The notes beneath the pieces were generated by a model. That model worked only from the letters and a program-made list of their open reading frames with translations. It was not told where the DNA came from and made no database searches. A DNA stretch of 64,000 nucleotides from a virus, in IMG/VR virus record IMGVR_UViG_3300025162_000041, positions 18,908 through 82,907 of that record; one strand, given 5' to 3'. The position numbers were made by a program, and so were the translations under genes. Of this stretch, positions 124 through 56,756 are shown piece after piece; the stretch's first letter is position 1, and each line of letters starts with the position of its first letter.

Positions 124-1387
124 ATTCTTGGAGTCAGAAAGCCCCTTCGGCTTTAGCCAAGGGGATGAATGACGACCATATTAAGGAAATAAAAATAAAA
201 TGACATTTTCCTTAAAGTCAATGATATGTATGTCCGTGAATGTAAAACGAAACTACAAGTTTAGGTTGTCTCCCAAAGGAGGAACGCTGACCCGTCTTGA
301 ACAGACGAGAGAAACTTGTCGCTACGTCTATAACCAACTCCTTGAGAAGCGAAACGACCACTATGAGAAAACCAAGAAGACACTCACTCATTTTGATTGT
401 TGTAAAGTGATTAAGGAGATGGAACTGAAAACTCCAGTCCATTCCCAAGTCCTCCAAAACGTATCTGCACGACTTGACCTTGCCTATCTTGGGTTCTTCC
501 GTAGGTTGAAGGATAAGACAGGTAAAGCAGGATTTCCACGATTTAAGTCCTATGACCGATATGACTCATTCACTTTTCCACAAACGGGTTTTAAGTTGAC
601 TCCAAAGAAACTTTGGATGTCCAAGATTGGTGATGTTCGGATTAACCTCCACCGCAAAATGGAAGGTAAGATTAAGACCCTGACCATTAAACGTGAAGGC
701 AATCATTGGTATGCTATTTTCTCATGTGAGGTTGAGATTAAACCAGAAGTTAAGAAGTGGAAACGAGCAGTTGGTATTGACGTTGGATGTATTGACTTTG
801 CCACTTGTTCCGATGGGACGATCATTTCTCATCCTCATTTCTTACGACAATCTTCCGAGAAACTTTCCAAAATCCAAGGTAAGTATTCCAAACTAAAAAA
901 GAAACCAAGGGATGATAAGCAGAAGATTAAGACCAAGAGAGCATTGGTATCGGTTCATTGCAAAATAAAGAACCAACGAAAAGATTTCCTACACAAGTTG
1001 AGCAAGAAGTTCGTAAGCGAATACTCTCATATTTGCGTGGAGGATATTAAACCAAGTCAGATGTTGAATGACAACTGGCGAAGTTTGAATAAGAGCATAT
1101 TGGACTCAGGATGGACTACGTTTAGACAAATGCTACATAGCAAAGCGGTAGATGCTGGTTGTGAAGTGAATGACGTAAATCCTGCCTATACGAGTCAGAT
1201 GTGTTCTGGTTGTGGCAACATTGAGATAAAGAAACTCTCTGATAGGCAACACAAATGTAATCTTTGTGGATTGGACATTGGAAGAGATTTGAATGCTGCA
1301 CGAAACATTTTAAGAGTCGGAATGGACTCTTTTGCTTCCAAAAGAAGCATGGAAGCCCCTATCCCTTTAGGGTAGGGGAGCATTCAC
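124..1387 (+). mobile_element. IS200/IS605-family element carrying tnpB only (no tnpA)
   Basis: Left end: TTAC target at 120-123, then AAAG guide and hairpin cccctt-cggctttagcc-aagggg. Right end: GAAG, hairpin cccctatccc-ttta-gggtagggg, then TCAC ending at 1387. The tnpB ORF lies between them. Confidence 0.9.
230..1375 (+). CDS. tnpB: TnpB RNA-guided endonuclease
   Basis: N-terminal YKFRL/RYVYN helix-turn-helix region; RuvC motifs GIDVG, VEDI and RDLNAA all intact; zinc finger CSGCG...CNLCG. ATG at 230 preferred over 200. Confidence 0.95.
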   Translation: MSVNVKRNYKFRLSPKGGTLTRLEQTRETCRYVYNQLLEKRNDHYEKTKKTLTHFDCCKVIKEMELKTPVHSQVLQNVSARLDLAYLGFFRRLKDKTGKAGFPRFKSYDRYDSFTFPQTGFKLTPKKLWMSKIGDVRINLHRKMEGKIKTLTIKREGNHWYAIFSCEVEIKPEVKKWKRAVGIDVGCIDFATCSDGTIISHPHFLRQSSEKLSKIQGKYSKLKKKPRDDKQKIKTKRALVSVHCKIKNQRKDFLHKLSKKFVSEYSHICVEDIKPSQMLNDNWRSLNKSILDSGWTTFRQMLHSKAVDAGCEVNDVNPAYTSQMCSGCGNIEIKKLSDRQHKCNLCGLDIGRDLNAARNILRVGMDSFASKRSMEAPIPLG

Positions 1388-1408
1388 TCATGTGAAAGGA
1401 AGAACGTT

Positions 1409-2053
1409 ATGTATAAAGGCAAGACAAACATAGAAATTGTAAAAAGTTATTTGGAAGGAGAAAAGTTATTTCCTGTATTCGGTTATACTGGCAAAGAATA
1501 CGTCAAACGAGCCATAGGAGAGCGTTGGATTGATAAATCGAATCAAGAGTGGGAGCAGAAGGCAGGTGGCCCTCAGAAGATCAATAGGGTGGCAAATATC
1601 GTGCGTGCGGCTATTGGCAATCAAAAATGCCGATGTGGTCAACAAATTCGGTGGGGTACTAAATTAGATAGATTATTTTTTAACAAAACTGGATTATGTG
1701 AAGGATGCCTCATTGATTATGAAACTAAATTACGTGTGTTGGGTATTTACAACGATTACGAGAAATACAAACTAGCTTCCAATGAACTTGGACATGTCAA
1801 GGACATGAAAACCAAAATCCGCGAGACAATTAAGTATTTCGAGTCCGATGACACCGACGTTAAGATGCTGTGTAATTCCGAAGGGTTCGTGGAGAGATGG
1901 AGGACAACCAATATCGAAGATATTCTTAAAGATGCCAGGAAAGATTTGAAGGAGGCTCATCAACGTATTGTTGCGCTAGTGAGAATTCGGGACGAACAAA
2001 AAGTAAAGTATATCGAGGCTTGCGCCAAATATAAATTGGAAACTATATGCTAG
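1409..2053 (+). CDS. hypothetical protein upstream of terminase (CxC...CxxC motif)
   Basis: 214-aa ORF with RBS-like aaggaag; overlaps the terminase start. Confidence 0.75.
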   Translation: MYKGKTNIEIVKSYLEGEKLFPVFGYTGKEYVKRAIGERWIDKSNQEWEQKAGGPQKINRVANIVRAAIGNQKCRCGQQIRWGTKLDRLFFNKTGLCEGCLIDYETKLRVLGIYNDYEKYKLASNELGHVKDMKTKIRETIKYFESDDTDVKMLCNSEGFVERWRTTNIEDILKDARKDLKEAHQRIVALVRIRDEQKVKYIEACAKYKLETIC

Positions 2054-4878
2054 ATGGAAAAATCTCCTATCAAGACCTAATCCGAGAGGAATATAAAAAG
2101 TGCTTAGAGTCACCAGTGTACTTTATGAAGCAGTATGTCAAAATCAAACACCCAATGCGGGGTACGATTCTTTTTGACTTGTTCAAATTCCAAGAGGAAA
2201 CTCTACAAGCTTTTCACGATTATAAGTTCAATATTATCCTCAAATCCCGACAAATGGGTATTTCAACCCTTGTTGCTTCGTATTCCTTATGGCTGATGAT
2301 TTTCCATAAGGATAAGACTGTTCTTTTGATTTCGTTAAAGCAAGATGATGCCAAAGATGTTTTGACTAAGGTTCGGGATGCTTATAAAGAACTTCCCAAC
2401 TGGCTCAAGATTCAATGTAGCGAAGATAATCGTCTGTCCATTCGGTTTTCCAATGGCTCGCGCATTCAAGCTGCCTCTACTACGAAAAAATCAGGTGTAG
2501 GTCAAGCCCTTTCTCTTCTGATTATTGATGAAGCTGCACTCATTGAAGATGCCGAAGACCTGTGGACATCTGCACAACCAACATTGTCAACCGGTGGAAA
2601 CGCCATCGTTCTTTCAACCCCCCGAGGAGTAGGAGGATGGTTTCATAAAATATGGCAGGGCGCATCCGATGATAACCAAGATGGCACCGTAGGGAGAAAT
2701 GGATTCCATCCTATTACTCTCCCGTGGCAGCTTCACCCCGAACGGGACGATGAATGGCGCAGAATTGAAGGCGAAAAACAAGGTAATCCTAAAAAGGCGT
2801 CACAAGAATATGACTGCAATTTCCTCTCATCTGGTGATAACGTCGTTGACCTCAATATCATTGAGTTCTATAAGAAAAATAAGGCGTGTGATCCTGTAGA
2901 ATGTCGGGGCATGGGTAAGAACCTATGGATTTGGGAGTATCCTGATAGAAGTCATGTCTATGTTGTATGTTTGCCATCTGGAGAATCGGTATTAACAGAA
3001 ATGGGGGTTAAAAGAATAGAAGATGTGACTTATGAGGATAAGCTCATTGATAAGGATGGTTATATTACAAATATCGAGGATATAAAGGTTAGACTATATA
3101 ACGGGAAAATATATGAAATAACTCCTTCCAATACATTTCGAACAACAAAATTTACAGATGAACATCCGATTTTTGTAAGTCAAACTTCCAAATTAAATAG
3201 GATGTATAAAAAGGATGATATAAATTATAGGTTTAATCAGAGATATTGGGAACATGATTTTAAGTTTGTAGATGCCAAAGATGTAAAGAAAAATGATTGG
3301 ATACGTTTTCCAAACATTTATACAAAAAATAAACTGGATAGTTTAAGTATAATGTGGAAAGAGTTTGAGAATATAGGAAGAATTGATTTTCAAATTAAAG
3401 ATAATCCATTTTTGAATGAGGATTTTTGGTGGTTTGTTGGTATTTGGTTGGCTGAGGGGTGGTGTTATACAGATAAAAGCGGAAATGTTACAATTCATAC
3501 GGCACATAACTCAAGCGAAACTATTATTATAAATAAATTGCGACGTATTGTTTTTGATCTGTTTGACAGAACTTTGCTTGTTATGCCAACAGAAAATAAT
3601 ACAACTGTATGTCAATTTGGATCTAAACAAATCGGGACGTTGTTAGAAAAATATTTTGGAAAGTATGCTGGAGGAAAGTTTATCTCGGAACGCATAAAAT
3701 ATATCTCTCAAAATGAGAAAATACAATTGATCAATGGATATATTGCCGGAGACGGATGTGTTTTAGCTAATAAGCGAGGAGCAAAATCTATAAAAATAAC
3801 ATCAATATCATTAAGATTACTAGAAGATATTCAAGATATGCTATTTTCATTAGGATGTGTTTCTTCTCTTAATTTATTGCGGGTAAAAAAACAAGCGAAG
3901 ATAAGAGAAAAAAATATAAACCAAAAACAAGCATATTCGTTAACTATTTCGGATTATGGATGTAAATGTTTAATATTAGGGCATTTGCCAAAATCTAAAT
4001 CTCAACGAACGGCGGATTGTTATTTAAGCCCGGATAATCAATATATTTATTTTCGTGTAAAAAAAGTAAAAGAGATGTTTTATTGTGGGGAGGTTCATAA
4101 TTTCACGACAAAATCTGGTACTTTTTTGTGTGAAAATATAACCACTCATAATTGTGCCGATGTAGCCCGTGGCGATGGCGCTGATTATTCGGCATGTCAT
4201 GTTTTAGACATCAGTAGAGAAAAACCAGTCCAAGTCGCCGAATACAAGGGTAAAATTAGTACTAAAGATTTTGGTGATTTTCTTGTAGCATTAGCAACTG
4301 AGTATAATAGCGGTTTGCTCGTGATTGAACGTGAAAATGTTGGATGGGGCACTATTCAAGAAGTTCTTGATCGGGGTTATCCAAATACTTTTTATAGTTC
4401 CGCAGACCTTAAGTATGTTGAAGTTCAACGTCAACTGAATAATAATTGGGCCGCCGAGGACAAAAAACTTGTCCCAGGATTCAGCACAAACGTCAGAACT
4501 CGTCCTCTCATAGTTGATAATATGGAGCATTACATGCGACATATGGCTGTTGAAATTCGCTCAAAACGCACCCTTGCAGAACTAGAGACCTTCGTTTGGA
4601 AGAATGGTAAACAAATCGCAATGGAGGGCTACAACGACGACTTAACGATGGCTCTCTGTATTGGTTTGTGGGTCCGTGATACAGCCCTTCGCTTACGTCA
4701 AGAAGGAGTCGAATTAACTAAGATTGCTGTAAGTGGAATGACTAAAGATAAAATGGATCAAACACCATTCTATAAAGTGAAACAAGCCCAGACAGGCCAT
4801 AATGCGTGGACAATGAATACGGGACGCCAAGGCTTCGGCAAACAAAATCAAGAGGATTTACGTTGGCTTATCGGCTAA
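2047..4878 (+). CDS. terL: terminase large subunit (T4 gp17-like), intein-containing
   Basis: Walker A-like KSRQMGIST, Walker B LLIIDEAA, coupling motif LSTPRG, nuclease motifs ADVARG, DYS and NDDL. Confidence 0.95.
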   Translation: MLDGKISYQDLIREEYKKCLESPVYFMKQYVKIKHPMRGTILFDLFKFQEETLQAFHDYKFNIILKSRQMGISTLVASYSLWLMIFHKDKTVLLISLKQDDAKDVLTKVRDAYKELPNWLKIQCSEDNRLSIRFSNGSRIQAASTTKKSGVGQALSLLIIDEAALIEDAEDLWTSAQPTLSTGGNAIVLSTPRGVGGWFHKIWQGASDDNQDGTVGRNGFHPITLPWQLHPERDDEWRRIEGEKQGNPKKASQEYDCNFLSSGDNVVDLNIIEFYKKNKACDPVECRGMGKNLWIWEYPDRSHVYVVCLPSGESVLTEMGVKRIEDVTYEDKLIDKDGYITNIEDIKVRLYNGKIYEITPSNTFRTTKFTDEHPIFVSQTSKLNRMYKKDDINYRFNQRYWEHDFKFVDAKDVKKNDWIRFPNIYTKNKLDSLSIMWKEFENIGRIDFQIKDNPFLNEDFWWFVGIWLAEGWCYTDKSGNVTIHTAHNSSETIIINKLRRIVFDLFDRTLLVMPTENNTTVCQFGSKQIGTLLEKYFGKYAGGKFISERIKYISQNEKIQLINGYIAGDGCVLANKRGAKSIKITSISLRLLEDIQDMLFSLGCVSSLNLLRVKKQAKIREKNINQKQAYSLTISDYGCKCLILGHLPKSKSQRTADCYLSPDNQYIYFRVKKVKEMFYCGEVHNFTTKSGTFLCENITTHNCADVARGDGADYSACHVLDISREKPVQVAEYKGKISTKDFGDFLVALATEYNSGLLVIERENVGWGTIQEVLDRGYPNTFYSSADLKYVEVQRQLNNNWAAEDKKLVPGFSTNVRTRPLIVDNMEHYMRHMAVEIRSKRTLAELETFVWKNGKQIAMEGYNDDLTMALCIGLWVRDTALRLRQEGVELTKIAVSGMTKDKMDQTPFYKVKQAQTGHNAWTMNTGRQGFGKQNQEDLRWLIG
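2968..4152 (+). mobile_element. intein with LAGLIDADG homing endonuclease in terminase (395 aa)
   Basis: Begins CLPSGESV and ends ITTHN|C; block B TDEHP; LAGLIDADG motifs GIWLAEG and GYIAGDG. Confidence 0.93.
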
Positions 4879-4886
4879 TCCGAACA

Positions 4887-4894
4887 TATTTATA
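4887..4894 (+). promoter_or_regulatory. putative late promoter TATTTATA upstream of portal (representative of about 16 gene-upstream copies)
   Basis: The same octamer occurs on the coding strand just upstream of many structural genes (see findings). Confidence 0.65.
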
Positions 4895-4936
4895 GAATAG
4901 GCCAATAATACATACACACTAATAGAAAGAAATATT

Positions 4937-7900
4937 ATGCCAACAAATACTAACATGTCGCTCAAGCCATTCGACGATGAAATACTCGATGTAAAAAAAC
5001 AGTCGCTATATGCAAGATTAAAAAGACTGTTTTCTACAGACGTTATCGTGCGTAACGTCGGCGGTAAACAACTGAAAATAAAAGATACCGATAGCATTAT
5101 GTATGCTACGGATAGAAATAGTCTACGAGACCGCTTTAATCGTATCCGTAGCACAGCCTATAATGCTTATACCCGTGACTTCGCCCTGTCATATCAAGCC
5201 GCAAGAATGGACTTGTTTCGTGACTACGATTGCGTAGGGCCAGATACAATTATTCCACTGCCAGATGGGTCAAGACCTACTATTAAGGAGTTAACAGAAA
5301 AATATAAAGATAAGCCGCAGGAACGATTTTATGTGTTTTCTTATGACCACGAAACCGATTCAATTAAACTTGGTCGTGCGTTTCATCCTAGAAAGAAAGG
5401 CGGCGGAACTAGAGAAGGATTTAAAGTAACTTTTGATGATGGACAATACGTTATTGGAAGTATTAAACATCCATTCTTAATGCGAAATGGCGAGTATAAG
5501 ATGATTTATGATCTTAAAGTTGGTGATTCAGTGATGCCGTTTTATCAAAAGGATTTTTATGGTCATGGTTATAGACATTTGTATAATTTTAGTAGGGGCT
5601 GGCAATCTGAACATAAAATTGTAGCAGAACAATTTGAAAGACCATTAAAAGAGAATGAGGTGGTTCACCATAGAAACTTTAATAAAACCAACAATTCCCC
5701 CGATAATCTTCAGATAATGATAGAGTCGGAACATAAAGCATATCATTGTAAAATCATTGCGGATAAATTGTGGTCACCAGAAAATAAGCAAAAAACTATA
5801 AACAAGGTTCAAGCATCAGAGGGATATAAGAATAGAAAATGTCATAAATGGAATGGTGAAAGACAAGGAGGAAATAATCCGTTTTATGGAAAAACTCATA
5901 CCGAAGAATCTAATGAAAAACGTTCAAAAACACTAAAAGAAGTGTTTGTAAATAGAGATCAAAACGGGAATAAAAATCCAAAATATAGAAAGGATTTAAC
6001 TATAGAAGTTCTGAGAATAAAAGCGAACGAATACTATAAAAAGAATGGTAAATTGACTTTATGGGGACTTATAAAGGATATAGGATGTGATTATACGACT
6101 ATTCAAAATAGGTTTAGATATTATAATTGTGATTGGGATACATTCAAAAATGATGTAGTTTCTACTTTGAATCATAAGATCAAATCTATTGAATCCATTG
6201 GTCAAATAGATGTATATGATGTTACAGTTGAACAGTTTGCGAACTTTGCTACTGATAGTGTTTTCGTAAAAAATACAATGGACATGGACCCGATCCTAAG
6301 TTGCCTATCTGGAGACACTTGCATATCGACGTTAAATGGGTTTGTTCCGATAAAAGAGTTGGCGGAGAAATATTCGGGAGATGAAACATTTAAAGTATGG
6401 TCGTGGGATAAAGATAGTCAAAAGTTGACAGTGGGAAATGCTCATCATCCCAGAAAAACAGGAACTAAAAGTGTAATAGAAGTACATTTGGATAATAGAG
6501 AGGTATTAAAATGTACTTCTGACCACAGAATAATGTTAGTTGATGGAACATATAAAGAAGCTGGCCAACTGATGAGCGGAGACTCATTGATGCCTTTTTA
6601 TCATAGGCAAAATCGAAATGGGTATCAAGAAATAAAATCTTTGGGAAAACGATTTAAATGTACACATCGTTACATTTTTGAAGATGTTCTAACCGAACAA
6701 GATTTGGTCGGCAGTAACATTCATCATAAAAATCATAATAAGTTAGATAACAGGTTGGAGAATTTGGAATTGATGACGGCGCTTGAACACATGAGGTTAC
6801 ACGGCATTTCTCCTATAACTAAAGGGAAAAAATCTATAAATTCAAAGGAGTGGTGGGAAAATTTAGAATATAGAACCAAATGTTCTGGTGCGTTAAAAAA
6901 ATATCAAGCATCTGACGAAGGGAAGAAAATGATGTCAGAACATACGTCGCTTATCAATACAGAACGATGGAAAAATGATTCCGATTATGCATTAAAAATG
7001 GCATCCATATTTTCCGAACATGCAAAGTCAATGTGGAGTGATCCTGTGTGGAAAGAATGGAAACGTAAAAAACACTCTGAGACAATGCGATTGAAATATG
7101 CGAATGATCCGATTTTTAGAGAACAAATAAAACGAGTGGGGCATGAAAATGGACGATACAAAGATTTAGTTACTACGGAATCTATTTTAATAGAGGGAAC
7201 AAAATATAACTCGTTAGTAGAATTTGCAAGAATCTTTGACTTCAACGGACTTGTATTTAAGAACGACCAATATAAATGCCAATTCATATCACGAAGATTG
7301 AAAGAAGCGGGGTATGATGGATGGACCGATTATAGAAATAAATTCGAATATTCTAATCACAAAGTAACGAAGATTGTCGATAACAATGAAGTTGTGGATG
7401 TATATGATTTGACGGTAGATATATACGAAAATTTCGCGATTAAACAAGGTATAATTTTGTCGAACAGTGCATTAGATATTTTTTCAGACGAATGCCTTAC
7501 GTATAATGAAGTAGGCAAGATGATTACTGTTCACTCGACCAACAACAATGTCAAGCGAATTCTTGAGAATTTATTTGATGAGATTCTCAATGTTCGGTTT
7601 AATTTATGGTCATGGACTCGCAACATGCCAGTGAAGTATGATTCTTATATTCCATTATTGTCGGGTGAAAATATAAGAATAGATGAGTTGTCTAAGAGAG
7701 TAAAATCCGGAGAGGAAATATGGGTATATTCTGTTCAAGATGGAACCAATCAAACTGTGCCTGGCAAAGTAATTTGGTGTGATAAAAATTATATATCGGA
7801 TAAAACAATAAAAGTAATATTTGACGATAACTCATATGTAGAAACTGCACCCGAACATCCTTTTATATTGCGAGATGGCCAAGAAAAACGAGCGGAGGAA

Positions 7901-10762
7901 CTTAAGGAAAATGACAGTTTAATGCCATTTTATAGAAAATTAAGTCCTGAAAAGGGTGGAATGAATAAATATGAAATGGTGTATAATCCACGGTCTAATA
8001 AACATGAATATACGCATCGGGTTGTTGCGGAATCCTGCGGAATAAAAACCGACAAAACGAATAGAATTTTACACCACAAAAATTTTAATAAATATGACAA
8101 TTCGCCCATAAACTTAGTTCCGATGGAGTTTTTTGAACACCGCAATCTTCATTCTGAACATTGTATTAAAACTCTACACACCCCAGAAGTCATTGAAAAA
8201 AGAAGAAAAAGTTTGGATAAATATCTTCGTTCAAATGATAGGAAAGAAAGACTTAGTAGAGAAATGAAGGGGGTAAAAGTAAAGTATTTTCAAGATTATA
8301 ATAACTCGGACTTACATGCTATCCATAACGAAATACGGTCAAAATTAAAAACTGAAATGTGGGCAGACCCGTCTCGTAGAGCGGTAGCAATCGGAAATAT
8401 GAAGATGGGGTGGACTCCTGAACGCCGAGAGTTAGCGAGTAAGAGAATGAAGGAATTTAGAAAAAATGGAGTTTTAACAAATCATAAAGTAAAATGTATT
8501 GAAATAATAAATGAAAATACTGATGTATACTGTATGACTGTCGTTGGTCCTGGTGGGGAACAGGATAGACACAATTTTGCTATATGCGGAAAGGATATGG
8601 AAGGAAACATAACCAAAACTAGTGGCGTATTTATTAAAAACTGTAAATATGGTGATTTTTTCTTAAAACTATATATTACACCCGAGTATGGTATTTACAT
8701 GGTCGAGCCAATTTCGGCTTACAATGTAGAACGGATTGAAAATTCTGATCCTACTAATAAGCGATATGTCAAGTTCCAACTTCGTCCTTCGGATACATCA
8801 CAGGCTGAAATTCTTGAAAATTATGAAGTAGCTCATTTTCGACTTATTTCCGATTCGAATTTTTTGCCCTACGGCAAGTCGATGATTGAAGGTGGAAGGA
8901 GGGTATGGAAGCAACTTTCACTCATGGAAGACGCTATGCTTATCAGTCGTATCATGCGTGCTCCTGAAAGACGTATTTTCTATACTGATATTGGCAATAT
9001 TCCGCCGAATGAAGTGGACGCTTACATGCAGAAAATGATGGATAAGATGAAGAAAGTGCCATATATTGATGAGCAAACGGGCGAATACAATCTTCGATTT
9101 AACCTTCAGAACATGATTGAGGATTATTATATTCCAGTTCGTGGTGGTGATAGTGGAACTAAGATTGATTCATTACCTGGAATGGAATGGACGGGTATTG
9201 ACGATCTTGAGTATATCAAGACGAAGATGATGGCAGCACTTAAGATTCCAAAAGCCTTTTTAGGATATGACGACGCAATAGCAGGTAAAGCTACTTTGGC
9301 TTGTGTTGTTCCCGAGACACGAGTACCTTTGCTCAACGGACTTACAAAAACAGTAAAAGAACTAATTGATGATTATAACAACGGTATAAAAAATTATGTT
9401 TATTCCATTGATGAAGAAACCAAAAACATTGTTCCGGGTGAAGTAGAATGGGCAGGATTCACTAGAATGGATACTGATGTTGTGCGAGTTTATTTGGATA
9501 ATACACAATATATTGATTGCACTTCTGACCATCGTTTTATGACGAGAGATGGCAATTGGCTGGAAGCCAAGGATTTAGTGGAAGGACAATCATTAATGCC
9601 ATTATATAGAAAAAATCAAATAATGCGTAAAAAACTGGATTATGAAATGGTTTATAATCCCTCTGCGGGGCGACCAAGGGCGGTTAAAAACCATAAAGTA
9701 ATAAAAATAGAACTATTATCCGAAAGAAGAGATACGTGTGACATAACAATAAAAAAGTATCATAACTTTGCAACTTCGGCGGGAGTTATTGTCCACAATT
9801 CGGAGGATGTGCGATTTGCTCGTACTATTCAACGTTTACAACGTATTATTACATCAGAACTTAGCAAGATTGCTATTGTTCATTTATATGCTCAAGGTTA
9901 CCGTGACGAATCGCTTGTTGATTTTGAACTTGAACTGACTAATCCATCGACCATTTTCGAGAAGGAGAAGCTTGAAATTTGGCAGGATAAAGTGAGTGTA
10001 TCCATTGATATGGTAGAGAACAAGTTTTTCTCTTATAAATGGATTTACAAGAATATATTCAATATGTCTGAAGACGACATTGAGCAAGTGCAAGAAGAAG
10101 TTGTTGAAGATGCCAAGCAGCGTTATCGTTTCACCAAGATTGAAGAGGATGGCGATGATCCAGCCAAACCATTCAAGAAGATAGGTGGAAAGGGTGACGG
10201 GGATGATAAAGATAAAGGTGGTCTTGGAGGTCTTGACATTGGTGGTGGAGGCGGTGGTGGAGGCGGTGGTGGAGGCGGTGGGCTTCCAGATCTAGATGAC
10301 CTTGGCGACATTAGCCCCGAAGGTGGGGAAGGAGAAGAAGGTGAGGAGGGAGAGGGCGAAAAAGAAGAAGAACTTCCCGACCTTACGAAAATTAAGGAAG
10401 TTGTAGAAGACACGCGTGATCGCAGTGATAGGGATCAAAGTGACCGAGATCAAAGTGACCGACACCAAGATGGTGAAAAGAAAGCTCCTAATACAACAGA
10501 AGATCCAATTGGTCGTCTTGAACGTTCTGCAACACCAAAGAAAAAGAGCGAGGGAAAGAGAGTTAGTGCCATTCAACATAATTACGAAGGTGGCACTCCA
10601 TTGCGCTTACGTGAGAGAGCATCTCCACCTATAGATAAGGGTATGATTAGTAGTCTTTCTGACTTCCTTAAAAAGACTCAGCCAGAGACCAAACAAGAAC
10701 TCTTGCGAGAGAATCAATTGACGAGAAGCAAGTCTATGTTAGATGAAACTCAATTGCTATAG
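4937..10762 (+). CDS. portal protein (T4 gp20-like) with four inteins
   Basis: Portal motifs EDAMLISRIMRAPERRIFYTDIGN, EDYYIPVRGG and EDVRFARTIQRLQ; about 700 aa after removing the inteins. Confidence 0.95.
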   Translation: MPTNTNMSLKPFDDEILDVKKQSLYARLKRLFSTDVIVRNVGGKQLKIKDTDSIMYATDRNSLRDRFNRIRSTAYNAYTRDFALSYQAARMDLFRDYDCVGPDTIIPLPDGSRPTIKELTEKYKDKPQERFYVFSYDHETDSIKLGRAFHPRKKGGGTREGFKVTFDDGQYVIGSIKHPFLMRNGEYKMIYDLKVGDSVMPFYQKDFYGHGYRHLYNFSRGWQSEHKIVAEQFERPLKENEVVHHRNFNKTNNSPDNLQIMIESEHKAYHCKIIADKLWSPENKQKTINKVQASEGYKNRKCHKWNGERQGGNNPFYGKTHTEESNEKRSKTLKEVFVNRDQNGNKNPKYRKDLTIEVLRIKANEYYKKNGKLTLWGLIKDIGCDYTTIQNRFRYYNCDWDTFKNDVVSTLNHKIKSIESIGQIDVYDVTVEQFANFATDSVFVKNTMDMDPILSCLSGDTCISTLNGFVPIKELAEKYSGDETFKVWSWDKDSQKLTVGNAHHPRKTGTKSVIEVHLDNREVLKCTSDHRIMLVDGTYKEAGQLMSGDSLMPFYHRQNRNGYQEIKSLGKRFKCTHRYIFEDVLTEQDLVGSNIHHKNHNKLDNRLENLELMTALEHMRLHGISPITKGKKSINSKEWWENLEYRTKCSGALKKYQASDEGKKMMSEHTSLINTERWKNDSDYALKMASIFSEHAKSMWSDPVWKEWKRKKHSETMRLKYANDPIFREQIKRVGHENGRYKDLVTTESILIEGTKYNSLVEFARIFDFNGLVFKNDQYKCQFISRRLKEAGYDGWTDYRNKFEYSNHKVTKIVDNNEVVDVYDLTVDIYENFAIKQGIILSNSALDIFSDECLTYNEVGKMITVHSTNNNVKRILENLFDEILNVRFNLWSWTRNMPVKYDSYIPLLSGENIRIDELSKRVKSGEEIWVYSVQDGTNQTVPGKVIWCDKNYISDKTIKVIFDDNSYVETAPEHPFILRDGQEKRAEELKENDSLMPFYRKLSPEKGGMNKYEMVYNPRSNKHEYTHRVVAESCGIKTDKTNRILHHKNFNKYDNSPINLVPMEFFEHRNLHSEHCIKTLHTPEVIEKRRKSLDKYLRSNDRKERLSREMKGVKVKYFQDYNNSDLHAIHNEIRSKLKTEMWADPSRRAVAIGNMKMGWTPERRELASKRMKEFRKNGVLTNHKVKCIEIINENTDVYCMTVVGPGGEQDRHNFAICGKDMEGNITKTSGVFIKNCKYGDFFLKLYITPEYGIYMVEPISAYNVERIENSDPTNKRYVKFQLRPSDTSQAEILENYEVAHFRLISDSNFLPYGKSMIEGGRRVWKQLSLMEDAMLISRIMRAPERRIFYTDIGNIPPNEVDAYMQKMMDKMKKVPYIDEQTGEYNLRFNLQNMIEDYYIPVRGGDSGTKIDSLPGMEWTGIDDLEYIKTKMMAALKIPKAFLGYDDAIAGKATLACVVPETRVPLLNGLTKTVKELIDDYNNGIKNYVYSIDEETKNIVPGEVEWAGFTRMDTDVVRVYLDNTQYIDCTSDHRFMTRDGNWLEAKDLVEGQSLMPLYRKNQIMRKKLDYEMVYNPSAGRPRAVKNHKVIKIELLSERRDTCDITIKKYHNFATSAGVIVHNSEDVRFARTIQRLQRIITSELSKIAIVHLYAQGYRDESLVDFELELTNPSTIFEKEKLEIWQDKVSVSIDMVENKFFSYKWIYKNIFNMSEDDIEQVQEEVVEDAKQRYRFTKIEEDGDDPAKPFKKIGGKGDGDDKDKGGLGGLDIGGGGGGGGGGGGGGLPDLDDLGDISPEGGEGEEGEEGEGEKEEELPDLTKIKEVVEDTRDRSDRDQSDRDQSDRHQDGEKKAPNTTEDPIGRLERSATPKKKSEGKRVSAIQHNYEGGTPLRLRERASPPIDKGMISSLSDFLKKTQPETKQELLRENQLTRSKSMLDETQLL
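5231..6274 (+). mobile_element. portal intein 1 (HNH + NUMOD3, 348 aa)
   Basis: CVGPDT...VYDVTV...VFVKN|T; HNH motif VHHRNFNKTNNSPDNL; NUMOD3-like NPFYGKTHTEES. Confidence 0.9.
6302..7465 (+). mobile_element. portal intein 2 (HNH, 388 aa)
   Basis: CLSGDT...TSDH...VYDLTV...ILSN|S; HNH motif IHHKNHNKLDNRLENL. Confidence 0.9.
7628..8641 (+). mobile_element. portal intein 3 (HNH, N-terminal Pro, 338 aa)
   Basis: Removing PVKYDS...VFIKN restores WSWTRNM|CKYGDFF; block B TAPEHP, block F VYCMTV, HNH motif LHHKNFNKYDNSPINL. Confidence 0.85.
9302..9799 (+). mobile_element. portal intein 4 (mini-intein, 166 aa)
   Basis: CVVPET...TSDH...IVHN|S; endonuclease deleted, with only a YEMVYNP remnant. Confidence 0.9.
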
Positions 10763-10846
10763 AAATATGGATATAATCCAACGGATATAATCTTAGATTT
10801 TGCCCGAACAAAGGTATATTTATAATATAGTTGAAGAGATTTGTCT

Positions 10847-11734
10847 ATGCAAAATCAAAAGAAAATGCGCCATTCCAAATTCCGTAATACTGGAATCTTG
10901 TTTGAGCTACTCACCAAACAGGTCACTGCCGATATTATTTCGGGCAGGGATACTTCCGCTGCGAAGGACTTGCTTCACAAGTATTTTCGGGAGACTACCG
11001 AACTTGGGCGTGAGTGGCAACTATATAGTACCCTGTTGAACGAAAAAATCAAAGATGAACCCCATGCTGAACGGTTCTTTTCTGTTATTTTGGAAGCCCG
11101 CAAGAAACTGAATGGTAGGAAACTTTCCCTTCTTAAATATGATTTAATCAAAGAGATTAAGGATGCATATCCCATTGAAGAAATGCTTAAAGCTCCTGTT
11201 CGGAATTATCGAGTTTTGGCCTCTATATATAAAGTCTTCGAAAATTCTGTATCCTCGGAATGTAAGTTTGATGTCAAAGAAGTATATCAATCAAAAAACT
11301 GTATAGTAGAACACATTGTTGACCGACCAAAAGTTATACATTCCGAAGATGAACTCATTAATTATTATAAAACTCAGACTGAGGATATACGTCTTCTTAC
11401 TTATAAACTTCTATGTGAAAAGTTCAATGACAAATATGCCACTTCATTGGACGATGACCAGAAAGCAGTTTTACGCGAATACATTTGCAACGTTGCCAAT
11501 ACAAATAATTTTGATGTTTTCGTGAAACAAAAGGTTACTAAAATTAAAAAGTCTTTGACTGAAGCAATTGACAAAATCAGAGATTCGGATGTAATGAGAA
11601 TTAAAATTCGTGAAATTGTCAATCAACTTGATAGAATTAATCCAGGTAAGATAGTCAAAGATAACCACGTCATGGTATTGATGCTATCCTATGAACTACT
11701 CAAGGAAGTACGCAAACAACTTAATGGAAAATAA
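10847..11734 (+). CDS. head-module hypothetical protein (possible prohead core component)
   Basis: Helical ORF between portal and protease, preceded by TATTTATA at 10817-10824. Confidence 0.6.
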   Translation: MQNQKKMRHSKFRNTGILFELLTKQVTADIISGRDTSAAKDLLHKYFRETTELGREWQLYSTLLNEKIKDEPHAERFFSVILEARKKLNGRKLSLLKYDLIKEIKDAYPIEEMLKAPVRNYRVLASIYKVFENSVSSECKFDVKEVYQSKNCIVEHIVDRPKVIHSEDELINYYKTQTEDIRLLTYKLLCEKFNDKYATSLDDDQKAVLREYICNVANTNNFDVFVKQKVTKIKKSLTEAIDKIRDSDVMRIKIREIVNQLDRINPGKIVKDNHVMVLMLSYELLKEVRKQLNGK

Positions 11735-11752
11735 ATATTAAAGGATATCGCA

Positions 11753-12991
11753 ATGATTATAGACATTAACATTCTTAAGAGACTCGGAGACCGTTTTGCT
11801 GTTTGTCCTGTTTCTTCTGCCCCTCCGCCACTTCAAGCTGCATTAAAGAAATCAGAAGCTATCTTTATCAAAGCCCCTGCAGGAGTTGAACCCTCAATTA
11901 CTGGTGGTGAATACCAATGGGATGACGAAATTAGTGGTTATCGTTTTGGTAACAATCAAAAGCTCTTTGTGGCCCCCGATGGAACTACCATATGGATATT
12001 TAAAGATGTTCTTCTTCGTATTCTTAAGCTTGACCGTGTTCAAAAATGGACTTCTGGAGATGCGGAATATCCAATGGGGAAAGCAAATGCCTTCTTTATT
12101 GTCTATGGAAAACTTACTGGACAGAATTTGGGTGAAGGCGAAACTGCGGGCGATGATGTTCCCGATGGCGAGACTGAACCAGGTGATGGTGGTGGATTAG
12201 CAGTTGCTGGTGACGAGAATGCCCCTCCATATTCAAAAGAAGAGGTTCAACAGATGTTGAAGGGGGAATTTCCTGCAGATATTCCTACGGGGCCAAAAGC
12301 ATCAATGGCTACGTCAATTCCTGGCGAAGAACCTGTGGGTGAAGAACCCGTGGAACCTTTGGCTCCAATGTCTGGACCGTCCCCATCAAGATTGGCAAAA
12401 GGAAATACTCCGGTTAATACAGGAGGCGAAGCTGACAGAATTATTAGGACACTTAAGAAGATGTCACATGTTGATCCTGACGTTAAGATGAATAAGCAAC
12501 AACCAGTTCGTATACATGGCGATGAAATTATTAAGTTATGGCATAAAGCTAATTCAATGCCACCAGAGGAAGGTAAAATATTACATGCGTTCCTTACGAG
12601 TGGAGATATTTTACCTTTGGAAGAAGGAAAAATTAGTAAGCATCAACTTAAACGTCTAGTTGAAAGAATTGTTGAAGGAATTGTTAGTGAAGTGGAAAAA
12701 TCCAAGAAAAAAAAGTGGACTGTAAAATTCCAAGGTAAAAAGGAAAACGAAGATATACAACTGGAGCAAACAACTACGTCTGGTGGTGTGGATTCTTCTC
12801 CTGGCACTCCCGGTTACATTACTCCCGGGGCATTCGGTAAGAAGATGTCTCATCGAAAAGACCATATTGAAGTTCTCGGGTATAAGATGACTCCCCAAGG
12901 AGAAAAAGAATATAATAAGTCTGCCGATGCGCTTTATGAATCTATCAAAAAGCAAGTGAAGACGACGATTCTACATCATAAGCGCAAGTAA
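11753..12991 (+). CDS. hypothetical protein, acidic/Pro-rich, possible internal head protein
   Basis: 412-aa ORF with RBS; internal LKRLVERIVE motif. Confidence 0.6.
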   Translation: MIIDINILKRLGDRFAVCPVSSAPPPLQAALKKSEAIFIKAPAGVEPSITGGEYQWDDEISGYRFGNNQKLFVAPDGTTIWIFKDVLLRILKLDRVQKWTSGDAEYPMGKANAFFIVYGKLTGQNLGEGETAGDDVPDGETEPGDGGGLAVAGDENAPPYSKEEVQQMLKGEFPADIPTGPKASMATSIPGEEPVGEEPVEPLAPMSGPSPSRLAKGNTPVNTGGEADRIIRTLKKMSHVDPDVKMNKQQPVRIHGDEIIKLWHKANSMPPEEGKILHAFLTSGDILPLEEGKISKHQLKRLVERIVEGIVSEVEKSKKKKWTVKFQGKKENEDIQLEQTTTSGGVDSSPGTPGYITPGAFGKKMSHRKDHIEVLGYKMTPQGEKEYNKSADALYESIKKQVKTTILHHKRK

Positions 12992-13004
12992 TATAAGGAA
13001 TTGT

Positions 13005-13883
13005 GTGATACCTTCTCTTAAACGAATTGTAGAGTCCTATGGAGCCGAGGGTCAGTATTATGACCTTGGTAAGGATTTTTCTGCATTTCGTAGAATGATT
13101 GATGGTGCTGATCAGCAAGTCAAGCAGCAATATGAGAAACAAATTGCGTCTAAACTTGTAGGGAAACGTGTTCGGGCAAATGCTTCGCGGGGGTATAAGC
13201 AGTTTATAAAAAGTTATGAGTTTGATGTTGTCCGAGTCACATTGGATGATTACTATGATAACTTTGTAGTAATAGCCTATGATAGTACGACTCCAAAACC
13301 AAAGGAATATTTTCTTAAGACGGGGTTCAAAATTCAGATTCTCGGACCTGCTACAGGGCAACCTTCTCCGCAAAAGGGAGGAGACCCTCGCTTCGAGAAG
13401 CCCAAACAGGTTGGTCCAATGCCCATTCAACCTGGACAGAATCCTAATGTAGCTCAATCACAGCCTATGGCATTAGCACCAGCGGGAGCAACTCCGAAAG
13501 AGACTCCGATGGAAGAAAATAAAGAGCAAGATGGACTTTATGATGCTTATGGAATGGATGAAATTTCTCAAGACATCAAAAGATGGATGCCAAAGCTGCT
13601 TAAGAAGCCAGAAACTCAACTACGTGAGTTTATTAAAGGGCTTGGATGGAAGAAGAATCTCGATAAAGGAACTACGGTGGCATTATTCGATTTAAGAATT
13701 CCTTCCATTATGGTTAAGCCTAACAATAATGAGCAAACCATTCGGGATATGCTTGCACAAGAGAGTGCGAACCCAAGGCCGGGGGAAAAGGCGGGAACAC
13801 GGTATGAATTGGTTAAATGTGAACCCGACCAAGAAAAAGGCGAATGGACTGTTCGCATAAAGAAAGTAATCTCACAAGTATGA
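13005..13883 (+). CDS. hypothetical protein
   Basis: GTG start with RBS aagga; N-terminus IPSLKRIVES; stop overlaps the protease ATG. Confidence 0.65.
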   Translation: MIPSLKRIVESYGAEGQYYDLGKDFSAFRRMIDGADQQVKQQYEKQIASKLVGKRVRANASRGYKQFIKSYEFDVVRVTLDDYYDNFVVIAYDSTTPKPKEYFLKTGFKIQILGPATGQPSPQKGGDPRFEKPKQVGPMPIQPGQNPNVAQSQPMALAPAGATPKETPMEENKEQDGLYDAYGMDEISQDIKRWMPKLLKKPETQLREFIKGLGWKKNLDKGTTVALFDLRIPSIMVKPNNNEQTIRDMLAQESANPRPGEKAGTRYELVKCEPDQEKGEWTVRIKKVISQV

Positions 13884-15619
13884 ATACACAAAAGAAACTC
13901 TTAATGGAATGCATTACGTTTGAAGCAAATCCACGAATGCTTCGAGAGTCAACATTGCATCCTAATCAGCCGTTTACGGTACAGGGGGTTCTGCAACGCA
14001 AAGGCAAAAAAAATCAAAACGGACGTATATATCCCGACGAGATTCTTATTCGTGAAGCCAATAAATATGCTCAGACGTTCATCCAAGACCATCGTGCTAT
14101 GGGGGAATTAGATCATCCAGAATGTTATCGGGTTGGTGCAGAAATATTTACGAATAGTGGATGGAAAGATTTACGAAATGTGGTTGTTGGTGAGTTAATA
14201 CCAACGTTGAATACGGTTACGAATACCATAGAATATAATCCAATTGAGCGAGTTATAAATGAACAATATAACGGTAAAATGGTATCTATTAAAGGAAAAA
14301 ATATAGATATTCTAGTTACTCCAAATCATAGATTTATTCTACAAACTAGATCAGATAGAGAACAACAAGTTATAGAAAAAACTGCCCAAGAAATATTGAA
14401 CATTTCTAAATTAACAAGAAATACACATTTATCCATTCCTATCGTAGCGGAAAATTGGAATGGATATAAGTATGATATCTATAAAATAGATGCTATTAAT
14501 ATTGAGGACATTGCCAATAATCAATCAAAAGATTATAATATTAAACAAACCACGGCACTTAATTTAGATGCCTCAGCATGGTTTTCGTTTCTTGGATTTT
14601 ATTTGGCAGAAGGACATTGTTCGGATAGAACAAATCGGAACGGTTATGAAATATTTATTACGCAAAATAAGGGAGAAATAGCAGATAAGTTTAGAGAAGT
14701 ATTGCATAATTTGAGTTCCGAATTAAAATGGAATGAGTGGGATAAAGGTGATAATGCAATTACGTTTAATACTTCTGATGCCCGTTTATGGACATATCTT
14801 TCCAAATTGGGAACTAAATATACTAAATATATTCCGCAAGATATAAAGAATGCTTCGTCTGAGTTATTGCAAAATTTGTATGATTGGTTTCTTAATGGAG
14901 ATGGTTCAGTGGTCGGAGATTATGAAAGGACATCTATATTTTCTGTATCTAAAAAACTGATGGAAGATTTTTATGATGTTATCCTTAAACTCGGAATGAC
15001 AGGTGTTATTAAAGAACAAATAACAACTGATGATTATATGTTTGCGGGACGATTGATTGAGGCAAAAAATAAATCTCCATTATATCGTTTATGGATTAAA
15101 GAATCAAAAGCAATTCATCTTGATTTCAGGTTTATAAAAATCGAAGAAGTGGATTATGATAGCACTGTTCATTGTGTTACTGTAAAAAATGGAACATTTT
15201 ATTGTCGGGATCATGGATTCCCTTTCTGGTCTGGAAATTCATCGGTTGTCAACCTGAAGAATGTATCCCATAATGTGCTCGAAATGCATTGGAATGGCGA
15301 TGATCTTATGGGAACTATTGAAATTCTTACGACTCCGAATGGCAACATTTTGCGTGAGCTATTTCGCAATGGTATTAAGCTTGGAATTTCAAGTCGTGGA
15401 CTTGGAACACTCAAGAAAATTTCTGAAAGTTCAGCCGTTGTTGGTGATGATTTTGAATTGATTGCGTTTGATTTTGTCTCAAATCCGAGCACTCAAGGAG
15501 CATTTATGTCTCCCGTAGGTCAAATTCCACTTTCCGAGGGTATTGTAAAAGACATGTTTACGGGGAAGTGGGCACGAACCGATGATATAGTAAGAAATAT
15601 CTTGTCCGAATTAAATTGA
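13880..15619 (+). CDS. prohead core protease (T4 gp21-like), intein-containing
   Basis: Motifs NQNGRIYP, GELDHP, LGISSRGLG and FDFVSNPS; ATG at 13880 overlaps the upstream stop (ATGA). Confidence 0.93.
   Translation: MNTQKKLLMECITFEANPRMLRESTLHPNQPFTVQGVLQRKGKKNQNGRIYPDEILIREANKYAQTFIQDHRAMGELDHPECYRVGAEIFTNSGWKDLRNVVVGELIPTLNTVTNTIEYNPIERVINEQYNGKMVSIKGKNIDILVTPNHRFILQTRSDREQQVIEKTAQEILNISKLTRNTHLSIPIVAENWNGYKYDIYKIDAINIEDIANNQSKDYNIKQTTALNLDASAWFSFLGFYLAEGHCSDRTNRNGYEIFITQNKGEIADKFREVLHNLSSELKWNEWDKGDNAITFNTSDARLWTYLSKLGTKYTKYIPQDIKNASSELLQNLYDWFLNGDGSVVGDYERTSIFSVSKKLMEDFYDVILKLGMTGVIKEQITTDDYMFAGRLIEAKNKSPLYRLWIKESKAIHLDFRFIKIEEVDYDSTVHCVTVKNGTFYCRDHGFPFWSGNSSVVNLKNVSHNVLEMHWNGDDLMGTIEILTTPNGNILRELFRNGIKLGISSRGLGTLKKISESSAVVGDDFELIAFDFVSNPSTQGAFMSPVGQIPLSEGIVKDMFTGKWARTDDIVRNILSELN
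14123..15238 (+). mobile_element. LAGLIDADG intein in prohead protease (372 aa)
   Basis: DHPE|CYRVGAE...TPNH...VHCVTV...WSGN|S; motifs GFYLAEG and FLNGDG. Confidence 0.92.
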
Positions 15620-15643
15620 CATTTTGACTTTGTTGCGATATAG
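15615..15643 (+). promoter_or_regulatory. sigma70-like promoter of endonuclease gene
   Basis: TTGACA-17 nt-TATAGT. Confidence 0.6.
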
Positions 15644-15665
15644 TATAAGCAATAAAGTCAAAATT

Positions 15666-17366: not shown

Positions 17367-17377
17367 AGCATATTTAT

Positions 17378-17666
17378 CTTTTAGGGAGCAGAAAACTCCT
17401 TGGTCTTCAGCCAAGGAGATGAATGCGACCCACAAATATAATTAGCTGACTTCTTCTGTGTCATAATATATATTGGTAATATGATTGAATAAGAGACGAT
17501 AACCAAGTCTCACAACACAATCGAAAAATAATTTTCTGGTTAAGAAACCAGATAACGGTCGGAACGACCGTATAAGCCGTCTGTCTTGACATAAGACTTT
17601 GTTAGAAATAACGAAGCAGTTGATTGGGTCGGAAACACCTACGTCTTTAGCGTAGGGGTAGTTCAT
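17378..17666 (+). mobile_element. ORF-less IS605 mini-element (promoter + omega-RNA-like scaffold)
   Basis: TTAT target, AAAA guide and left-end hairpin; CTGACT-17-TATATT promoter; acggtcggaacgaccgt hairpin; right end GAAA-hairpin-gtagtTCAT. Confidence 0.82.
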
Positions 17667-17673
17667 ATCCATA

Positions 17674-18501: not shown

Positions 18502-18516
18502 AGGGATAGGGGCTTG
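18482..18516 (-). mobile_element. solo IS605 right end
   Basis: Minus strand reads CAAG-cccctatccctttagggtagggg-ttgtTGAC; the hairpin is identical to that at 1356-1378. Confidence 0.75.
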
Positions 18517-19765: not shown

Positions 19766-19769
19766 TTTT

Positions 19770-20597: not shown

Positions 20598-20601
20598 AAA
20601 G

Positions 20602-51177: not shown

Positions 51178-51682
51178 ATGGTGAATGCTCCCAACCTCTA
51201 AAGAGATTGGGCTTCTATGGTTCTTTAACGAGTACCAATGGAGTCCATCCCGAATCCAAACTCAAATTGTATGACATTGCTTGAAACATTATTCCGTATG
51301 GAAAGGTTAATTAGACCTTCGTCAGCATCTTCCGCTTTGCGATTGGTTTCTCCCAATGTTGTCCATCATAATATATGATTGAGAAACAGAAAGCAACTTA
51401 TTATATTCGTGGGTCGCCATTCATCCCAAGGTCTAAAGACGCTTGGGTTTTCTGGCGACACGGAGATAAAACTGAAAGCATTACTGGAAGGAACGGGGAT
51501 ATCGGTGGTTGTTTGTCACGGAAAAACGTCCACACGATATTGAGGGTTATGGAGATTATATATATAAAATTTATATTAAGAACGCCGTGTGTATTCTCGA
51601 TGATCCGTATGGTGCCAATGATATTGCATATGCATATGTGTATCACATAAGCAATCCGCCAAAATGGGAATCGTATGATTAA
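51178..51682 (+). pseudogene. disrupted gene MIKLKALLEGTGISVVVCHG...
   Basis: ATG at 51178-51180 joins ATAAAACTGAAAGCATTACTGGAA at 51466 once the element is removed; the downstream part (YGDYIYKIYIKN...WESYD*) is in another frame. Confidence 0.6.
51181..51465 (-). mobile_element. ORF-less IS605 mini-element, omega-RNA cognate to the tnpB at 230-1375
   Basis: Minus strand: TTAT target, AAAA and left-end hairpin, TTGCTT-17-TATTAT promoter, gcaaagcggaagatgctg (cf. tnpB 1140-1157), gatggactc...GAAG-hairpin-agcatTCAC. Confidence 0.87.
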
Positions 51683-56051: not shown

Positions 56052-56372
56052 ATGAAAACTACATCTATTTTAAATGATTTTAAGGATATTTTAATATCTG
56101 AAGAAGGAGCTACGGGCGACATGGAATGTGTCACCGTGACCAATGGCACAGAAATATGGCAGGGGTGGCGATGGCAATATAATAAGGGAACTTCTGTTGG
56201 ATGCTTAGGCAATCCACCGGCCAAAGGTTTTGACTGGGATGGAATAAAGTGGAAGGTGCTTAAAGAAAAGAAAAAACCTAAGTTTCGTAAGAAGAAGTGC
56301 AATACCATCGTATATCGTCCCAGCGCAGCAATTATGCAATTTCCGTCATTCATTTTAGATGGTAAGAACTGA
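56052..56372 (+). CDS. hypothetical protein
   Basis: 106-aa ORF between the fibre genes. Confidence 0.55.
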   Translation: MKTTSILNDFKDILISEEGATGDMECVTVTNGTEIWQGWRWQYNKGTSVGCLGNPPAKGFDWDGIKWKVLKEKKKPKFRKKKCNTIVYRPSAAIMQFPSFILDGKN

Positions 56373-56400
56373 ACAATCACTTATATTTATACTTATATGC

Positions 56401-56756
56401 GTCAACTACCCACGACCCTAAAGGGTCGGGGCTTGCCAGAGTTTAGGTCCGACGATTGGCTTGTTGACGGTAGCCTGTCCAAAGAGTGCCTTACGGCACG
56501 AATTGGAGTGTTATCTTGTGTCATTGAAATACGCTCGGGGGGGAGCAAACTAATTGAATAGCGTTGTATTTCTCGACAAGAAACGATGCTTAATTGATTT
56601 TACTGGATAGAAGCAATTATTTTCTGCTATCCAAACCATATACCAAAGAACTATGTATAATATAGCGGAAACCGAGAAAGATGTCAATGGAAATTATTAA
56701 TTATATTTCGTTGCTCCTACCCTAAAGGGATAGAGGTTTCTGCAACGAGAAAATAT
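56401..56756 (-). mobile_element. ORF-less IS605 mini-element encoding a structured omega-RNA-like ncRNA
   Basis: Reverse complement is homologous to 23936-24332; TTGACA-17-TATATT promoter; right end CAAG-hairpin-tagtTGAC; TCAT target at 56757-56760. Confidence 0.82.

Follow-up and report, generated by a model that had tools for sequence, protein, structure and literature searches.

The closest described counterparts of the elements reported here are the palindrome-associated transposable elements (PATEs) of haloarchaea and Geobacillus stearothermophilus. In the part of the work of Meers et al. (PMC10055086) on which we draw, they have no protein gene, carry IS200/IS605 ends, occur in multiple copies and rely on TnpA in trans; they "often encode omega-RNAs", which need the TnpB of other elements to use them in trans. 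We analysed a viral DNA stretch of 64,000 nucleotides (nt), hereafter the window, which corresponds to bases 18908-82907 of the 82.9-kb IMG/VR virus record IMGVR_UViG_3300025162_000041. It contains one insertion sequence with an intact tnpB gene (tnpB1), four cassettes without a recognisable protein gene (c17, c23, c51 and c56) and a truncated fifth. These five are internal-deletion derivatives of tnpB-bearing insertion sequences in a T4-like freshwater phage of ~360 kb, a genome size implied by the CheckV completeness of ~23% for the 82.9-kb contig. We are confident that the cassettes are non-autonomous IS200/IS605 derivatives which keep the omega-RNA scaffolds of three lineages. The T4-like gene set comprises a Gp23 capsid protein, a Gp20 portal, a T4-type terminase and a prohead protease, and the DNA runs that contain the phage are freshwater or lake metagenomes from four studies; the ten runs listed include none of RNA. 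A megablast comparison of window positions 1-12000 with GenBank phages gave no match.

Orphan omega-RNA PATEs that need TnpB in trans are already published; the huge-phage setting is less familiar. As far as the consulted part of that publication describes PATEs, the cassettes differ from them in sitting in a T4-like huge phage and not in a cellular chromosome, in bringing three scaffold lineages into one 64-kb stretch, in each having a match to a sigma-70-like promoter, and in lying in several cases at the start or end of a gene. In the literature searched we found no orphan omega-RNA cassettes described for phages, although supplements, such as the extended data of Meers et al., could hold such cases. 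With IS608 and ISDra2 the present elements share imperfect subterminal hairpins, an insertion 3' of a tetranucleotide that leaves no duplication, a covarying 4-nt guide and RuvC-motif stretches that can be aligned. The GAAT/TCAA pair of IS608 also recurs on the second tnpB element of the contig (tnpB2), outside the window. In contrast to IS608 and ISDra2, the contig has no tnpA and the cassettes lack tnpB too, and the closest autonomous element that we saw lies in another phage (G005), where tnpA is inverted and extra small open reading frames (ORFs) are present.

The element tnpB1 (124-1387, plus strand) is non-autonomous and inserted after TTAC (120-123); its right end reads GAAG..TCAC and its 3' flank is TCATGTGAAAGG. 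Its ORF (200-1375) is a TnpB by Pfam (HTH_OrfB_IS605, OrfB_IS605 and Cas12f1-like_TNB) and aligns with the ISDra2 TnpB (8H1J) at E 8e-50. Both CxxC pairs are present, and the aligned stretches include GIDVG, VEDIKP and GRDLNAARNI, which we take to be the carriers of the D-E-D catalytic triad. By this alignment TnpB1 looks catalytically intact. Homologues of tnpB1 with 80-99% identity and the same right end are found at other flanks in other viral contigs, and a scan of genome contigs, sensitive to close relatives only, found no close relative of TnpB1 in cellular genomes.

Direct reading of the sequence confirmed the coordinates and the IS200/IS605 ends that a preliminary description had given for the four cassettes; the truncated sixth locus had escaped it. 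Cassette c17 (17378-17666, plus strand) is inserted after TTAT (17374-17377), has the right end GAAA..TCAT and stops 7 nt ahead of the ATG of gene 17674-18501. Cassette c23 (23936-24332, plus strand) follows TCAT (23932-23935), a tetranucleotide holding the start codon of the minus-strand gene 23240-23935, and ends in CAAG..TGAC. On the minus strand, c51 (51181-51465) follows TTAT (the reverse complement of 51466-51469), ends in GAAG..TCAC and contains a degenerate remnant of a TnpB C-terminus (..GMDS..). It splits the ATG (51178-51180) from the remainder of a 26-codon MIKL-type ORF. This ORF begins MIKLKALLE, with ATAAAACTG on the far side (51178-51545), and the next gene (51675) begins MIKLRLLLLE. 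The second window copy of the c23 family, c56 (56401-56756, minus strand), is inserted after TCAT (the reverse complement of 56757-56760) and also ends in CAAG..TGAC; compared with c23, its left ~200 nt are about 88% identical, the middle has diverged and the right end is 95% identical. The truncated locus (18482-18590, minus strand) consists of a TGAC-lineage scaffold and a CAAG..TGAC right end, and its left end was not found. Over its final ~45 nt it matches the L243 TnpB element at the right end, and its last 20 nt provide the final codons and the stop of gene 17674-18501.

The cassettes lie 5-27 kb apart and differ in family and orientation. That they hold no credible ORF is upheld in that Pfam matched none of the four ORFs overlapping them and that c23 and c56 share no conserved ORF, but it has to be qualified, as ORFs of at least 60 amino acids (aa) overlap c17, c23 and c51, with none of that length within c56. 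Like PATEs and miniature inverted-repeat transposable elements (MITEs), the cassettes have no protein gene, share their ends with the elements of L240, L243 and G005, and occur as copies at different flanks.

A bulged-T hairpin with a CTTTAG-type loop is present at both ends of tnpB1 and of all four cassettes, and the stems covary across homologues. The 4-nt guide directly 5' of the hairpin fits the cleavage tetranucleotide, following the IS608 rule, at each of these 10 ends and at the right end of the truncated locus. The left and right pairs are AAAG/TTAC and GAAG/TCAC for tnpB1, AAAA/TTAT and GAAA/TCAT for c17, GAAA/TCAT and CAAG/TGAC for both c23 and c56, and AAAA/TTAT and GAAG/TCAC for c51. 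Among distinct left ends whose guide and cleavage letters had been left free by the search patterns, 15 of 15 covary (AAAG with TTAC in 7, AAAA with TTAT in 8). The rule had been proposed in the preliminary description and holds throughout, and the five 12-nt guides predicted there are all identical to the true 3' flanks. The element boundaries are fixed independently by empty sites in relatives and by contig loose ends at 17666 and 24333.

The elements have inserted 3' of TTAT, TTAC or TCAT with no duplication of the target, and they occur in multiple copies with different flanks. Insertion-free alleles in related phages, as supposed earlier, are seen for tnpB1, c17 and c23. The closest relative is a 120.8-kb contig (G001) with flank proteins 52-76% identical; it has no tnpB at the site orthologous to tnpB1 (L086), between homologues of the flanking genes. 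The c17 site is empty in three of three relatives examined (L004, L301 and L302, two of them more distant than G001) and reads stop-TTTATATTTAT|AAACAATATG in G001, where the empty c23 site (L084) reads ..ACTTCAT|GAGTATAAATATG. Neither the c17 junction (TTTATATTTAT|AAACAATATG) nor the c23 junction (ACTTCAT|GAGTATAAAT) shows a target duplication, and TTAT (c17) or TCAT (c23) is kept at the empty sites of the closest relative. In L301 and L302 the homologous gene is not followed by the truncated locus. For c51 and c56, no orthologous site was found in G001, five large relatives or a viral scan, the flank proteins having no match or matches to repeat domains only.

A c17 copy of 93% identity lies at another flank in L219, and the family is also found in L255, L272 and L285. 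Copies of c23 with 93-94% identity occupy other flanks in L087, L088 and L089, and a further c23-type copy stands at the start of the 82.9-kb contig, outside the window. An identical 98-nt stretch of the c51 right end recurs in L219/L230 beside a different flank. The copies in contig G002 resemble c23 (two), c17 (one) and c51 (one), and none has the flanks seen in the window; G003 has one c23-like copy; only the elements match between these two contigs and the 82.9-kb contig. The Logan contigs of four DNA runs from four studies (region 5400-25399) break at the elements, with a summed depth of ~3-4x that of the flanks and with loose ends at 17666 (c17), 24333 (c23), and 18481 and 18516 (truncated locus). 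None of the Logan contigs from the four runs spans c17 or c23 cleanly; they stop at the repeats and give no evidence either way on empty alleles. The joints 23962>24304 and 23974>24299 were considered as empty sites or mini-elements and rejected, as they link similar left-end and right-end hairpins and the intervening sequence is not known. The same c51-like right end is found at both ends of G002 (L219 1-98 and L230 10725-10822), where IMG/VR records "inverted terminal repeats"; these look like an assembly break in a repeat and not a genome terminus.

In characterised TnpB systems the omega-RNA scaffold lies in the 3' end of tnpB together with the right end of the element. We compared the cassettes with three covariance models made from tnpB-bearing elements of other viral contigs, with the cassettes excluded: R1 (16 sequences, tnpB1 of the window included), R2 (13 sequences) and R3 (9 sequences). 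R1 scores 204.8 bits at the 3' part of tnpB1 (1188-1387). The full R3 model matches c17 (scaffold 17512-17666; 101.1 bits, E 2e-24), and the full R2 model matches c23 (24207-24332; 55.8 bits, E 8e-15) and c56 (56401-56495; 57.7 bits, E 2e-15). R2 also scores the truncated locus (30.7 bits, E 3e-7). The match of R1 to c51 (51181-51299; 60.3 bits, E 3e-15) is partial, with three 3' stems kept and model positions 26-111 deleted. On c17, c23 and c56, R1 finds the end hairpins only (at most 17 bits), and R2 gives 8.2 bits (E 2.4) on c17, a lack of coverage that made the third model necessary. Over the 64-kb window, none of the three models has a match at E<1e-3 outside the elements. Three lineages are thereby distinguished: c51 belongs with the window TnpB (TCAC), c17 is of the TCAT lineage, and c23, c56 and the truncated locus are of the TGAC lineage.

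The cassettes retain the 95-155 nt that lead up to the right end. Compensatory changes are found in 17 of the 35 pairs of the R1 parent family (A3) and in 12 of the 20 pairs of the R2 parent family (A5). Between c17 and L240 they include CGGTCG/CGACCG against CAGTCG/CGACTG and GTTA/TAAC against ATTG/CAAT; between c23 and L087-L089, GC/CG is changed to AU/UA in the hairpin at 24195-24211. The model matches and the compensatory changes together indicate that the cassettes keep the region that encodes the omega-RNA scaffold in characterised TnpB systems. The stems are kept with compensatory changes (partially in c51), and the scaffolds are conserved in structure. By analogy, the retained region would make an RNA here. 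Rfam families of IS605- or IscB-linked RNAs gave no match at the gathering score in the whole window. Sub-threshold matches to HEARO, the IscB-associated RNA, fall at TGAC-type right ends (56401-56494 and 18482-18600 on the plus strand, 24253-24332 on the minus strand). Membership in HEARO is rejected, because these matches are antisense only and score 20-30 bits where gathering requires 83; they probably reflect shared features of IS200/IS605 ends. Matches to RUF1 and TCL6_2 are due to chance, and a group I intron or IStron reading is rejected, as no intron family was matched.

Promoters are recognised here as matches to a sigma-70-like consensus only. The best site in the region of c56 is TTGACA-17-TATATT at 56687-56659, which fits 11 of 12 consensus positions, and c23 has TTGACA-17-TATATA. 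In the c23 family TTGACA is invariant in three versions (c23, c56 and the copy at the contig start), whereas c23 and c56 differ at 6 of the 17 positions in the spacer. The c17-family copy in L219 has TTGACT-16-TATATT. Most simply, the promoter-like stretch is the old tnpB promoter.

Within the window, only c51 has a TnpB of its cognate lineage. Candidates for the other cassettes come from related phages. In G003 (L240) there is a TnpB of the TCAT lineage, the ends of its element being TTAT/AAAA and GAAA/TCAT. TGAC-lineage TnpBs are found in L242, L243 and L245 and, by contig, in G002, G003 and G005. These three contigs with cognate TnpBs also carry cassette copies. Y1 TnpA is present in one of five related phage records, the complete 353.8-kb phage G005, whose element combines a c23-type left end, the Y1 TnpA, a 379-aa TnpB, an R2-type scaffold and a CAAG..TGAC right end. 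These TCAT- and TGAC-lineage TnpBs and the TnpA of G005 agree with the view, drawn from the three right-end types, that additional tnpB genes and a tnpA exist elsewhere. Two further records are richer still, G006 with 15 TNB-domain matches and 8, 6 and 4 matches to R2, R3 and R1, and G004 with 11 TNB-domain matches and 6, 5 and 3 matches to the same models; several of these RNA-model matches have no adjacent tnpB, as judged by position.

Based on work with IS608, ISDra2 and Geobacillus, the following course of events can be proposed. Each cassette retains a left end, that is, a hairpin that TnpA would recognise together with its 4-nt guide. A Y1 TnpA acting in trans, encoded elsewhere in the phage genome or by the host, would excise and insert the elements as single strands. 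A transcript from the left-end promoter would run through the scaffold into the flank and give an omega-RNA with the 3' flank as its guide. The cognate TnpB from a full-length element would then load the cassette RNA and cut the element-free site, composed of target motif and flank, which may arise on excision or be brought by a co-infecting phage without the insertion. Recombinational repair of the cut site would copy the element back. Homing of TnpB into co-infected phages has been proposed in theory (2026 review PMC13565253, section 6.1 and Table 1, among the parts of it used here). The outcome proposed here is that of the free-standing and intron- or intein-borne homing endonucleases of T-even phages (Seg, Mob and I-TevI), treated in sections 3.2 and 6.1 of that review, in which the element-free allele in a co-infecting genome is cut and then repaired from the element-bearing one. 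LAGLIDADG or HNH endonucleases borne by inteins are also present in this phage; the difference would lie in a recognition predicted to depend on an RNA guide together with a 4-nt motif, while the gene of the nuclease would stand at a separate locus.

We believe that the best overall explanation, and a probable one, is that the cassettes are selfish PATE/MITE-like derivatives whose omega-RNAs are used in trans for homing. The narrower proposition, in which the cassettes are transcribed and their RNAs are taken up in trans and bring about homing, is close to evenly balanced, with the balance slightly on the negative side. The elements are selfish first, and any benefit to the phage is secondary.

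Several observations weigh against trans use of the RNAs. A search of the 82.9-kb contig (~23% of the genome) for tnpA and tnpB yielded no match to PF01797 (Y1 TnpA), which makes the elements non-autonomous, and no TnpB cognate to c17, c23 or c56, that is, to three of the four cassettes. The target motif of c51 is TTAT against the TTAC of TnpB1, although homologues 80% identical to TnpB1 (L217/L229) use TTAT. Region-wide counts of promoter-like stretches barely exceed those of shuffled sequence (31 vs 25.1 and 42 vs 29.4), so that the earlier claim of a promoter for each cassette is borne out as consensus matches but is statistically weak, and the promoter of the c17 family is not clearly conserved in L255, L272 and L285. 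In c51 more than 80 positions (26-111) of the TnpB1-family model are missing, and the truncated locus, without a left end, looks decayed. Within a family the copies share 93-100% identity, so that there has been little time for decay, and much of the scaffold retention could reflect recent descent and not selection. Finally, the right-end hairpin, which TnpA needs as well, is part of the models, and part of each score is therefore not specific to an RNA.

The high identity, the truncated locus, the loss in c51, the lack of cognate TnpBs for three cassettes in the contig and the weak promoter matches also speak for inert relics, deletion derivatives that TnpA still moves through their intact ends while their RNAs are not made or used, the scaffold being present through recent deletion and as part of a needed right end. 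What TnpA requires at the right end is a hairpin region of roughly 40 nt. Independent short derivatives (L203, L212, L255, L272, L285 and the tnpB-tip element of L003) nevertheless all keep far more than this. Moreover, the middle parts of c23 and c56 have diverged, yet their scaffold stems are conserved with compensatory pairs, and the TTGACA of the c23 family is invariant beside a variable spacer. We regard inert relics as the strongest rival, with something over one chance in four.

A second alternative, advanced by the preliminary description, is that a single TnpB (200-1375) is loaded in trans with the RNAs of all the cassettes, the set being a weapon of the phage with many scattered guides, aimed at co-infecting relatives in the manner of a CRISPR array. 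The apparently intact catalytic stretches of TnpB1 would suit it, as would the right-end type and the three 3' stems that c51 shares with TnpB1. Inteins with LAGLIDADG or HNH signatures are present in the genes for terminase, portal and prohead protease, from which homing during co-infection seems frequent in the lineage, and the theoretical proposal of homing into co-infected phages (PMC13565253, section 6.1, in the portion considered) points the same way. The set of guides is nevertheless not matched to one TnpB. Cassettes c17, c23 and c56 match other scaffold models, R1 seeing only their hairpins, and the TnpBs of their parents share only 25-34% identity with TnpB1, so that c51 alone fits the lineage of the window TnpB. 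Each guide fits only its own empty site, and a second tnpB is present on the same contig. As in CRISPR arrays, those of huge phages among them, several short guides could serve a Cas12-like nuclease, which is an analogy and not membership; unlike such arrays, the cassettes have no repeats, no repeat-spacer organisation, no spacer acquisition and no sign of guide turnover, and each locus has one guide fixed by its insertion site. This is the published logic of TnpB homing, not of immunity, and we consider the single-TnpB weapon improbable.

The positions of several elements relative to gene starts bear on a third alternative. Left ends of the c23 family abut an opposite-strand ATG and read AAAGGAAAAAC-ATG, with an AAGGA resembling a ribosome-binding site (23925-23950; contig bases 190-205; 56750-56765). 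As TCAT is the reverse complement of ATGA, insertion after it falls exactly upstream of opposite-strand start codons. The ATG beside c56 and that beside the G005 insertion open a mini-ORF only. TATAAGTA/TATAAATA motifs, presumably the T4 late-promoter consensus, adjoin the right ends of c23 and c56 (24333-24350 and 56385-56400) and the empty c23 site (L084 1248-1262). TldR proteins are nuclease-dead and target promoters of host genes. They and other domesticated TnpBs with orphan guide RNAs share with our elements, as far as the consulted part of 10.1101/2023.11.30.569447 goes, the use of a guide RNA away from a mobile tnpB, whereas the guides here match their own empty sites only. That the insertions are domesticated regulatory modules, kept for the promoters or ribosome-binding sites of neighbours or for TldR-like repression by TnpB and RNA and not for homing, could draw on the AAAGGAAAAAC-ATG arrangement (c23 and the contig-start copy), on the end of c17 just ahead of a start codon and on the TATAAATA/TATAAGTA motifs beside c23 and c56, but target choice alone explains the start-codon position, the c56 and G005 insertions abut mini-ORFs only, the element itself separates target motif from flank so that self-regulation by the guide is not expected, and TnpB1 keeps the aligned catalytic-motif stretches that distinguish it from TldR, and we hold this to be the least probable of the alternatives.

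The preferred reading of selfish, homing derivatives may be extended to huge T4-like phages at large. They may form a complete IS200/IS605 ecosystem with a phage TnpA, as many as 15 tnpB genes in a genome, and orphan cassettes of promoter and omega-RNA. During infection the orphans would be loaded in trans on cognate phage TnpBs and would act in homing or marker exclusion by cutting, at several junctions of structural genes, those alleles of co-infecting relatives that lack the insertion. We hold this larger picture to be rather unlikely as a whole.

The 82.9-kb contig carries two tnpB genes and seven tnpB-less loci in all. The gene tnpB2 (352 aa; G000:C1, about 2990-4090) is unrelated to tnpB1 and lies outside the window (loci L002 and L003 hold it and the tip element); its ends are IS608-like, CAAT/TGAA and GAAT/TCAA. 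The tnpB-tip element, 200 bp at contig 9660-9860, also outside the window, has a left-end hairpin fused directly to the last ~45 tnpB codons and the right end (..GTTTTCAC) and is scored by R1 at 84.7 bits.

Intein, LAGLIDADG or HNH signatures are found in the genes of the terminase (2047-4878), the portal (4937-10762) and the prohead protease (13844-15619). The portal protein, of 1941 aa, has four intein-splicing stretches and an HNH. Contigs from two runs in two studies (X2 and X4) skip 1020 bases at 7621-8642, with 6 other letters between, and this segment coincides with an intein of the portal gene; the population therefore seems to include an intein-free portal allele as well. Besides the RNA-guided elements, the genome bears a heavy load of protein-guided ones.

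For annotation, these results mean that IS605 derivatives break metagenomic phage assemblies and can mimic "inverted terminal repeats", as in G002. The cassettes are also natural deletion experiments, in which 95-155 nt of three omega-RNA scaffolds outlast the loss of tnpB, and may be helpful for trimming the guide RNAs of compact editors. Should the ecosystem picture be true, it would provide a natural case of "non-restorative transposon homing", so far only a theoretical proposal. If the RNAs are used, RNA-guided homing would operate beside the protein-guided homing of inteins and HNH endonucleases in one genome, and the phage lineage would be a natural test system for TnpB homing between co-infecting genomes, a process which, in the part of PMC13565253 consulted, is in print only as theory.

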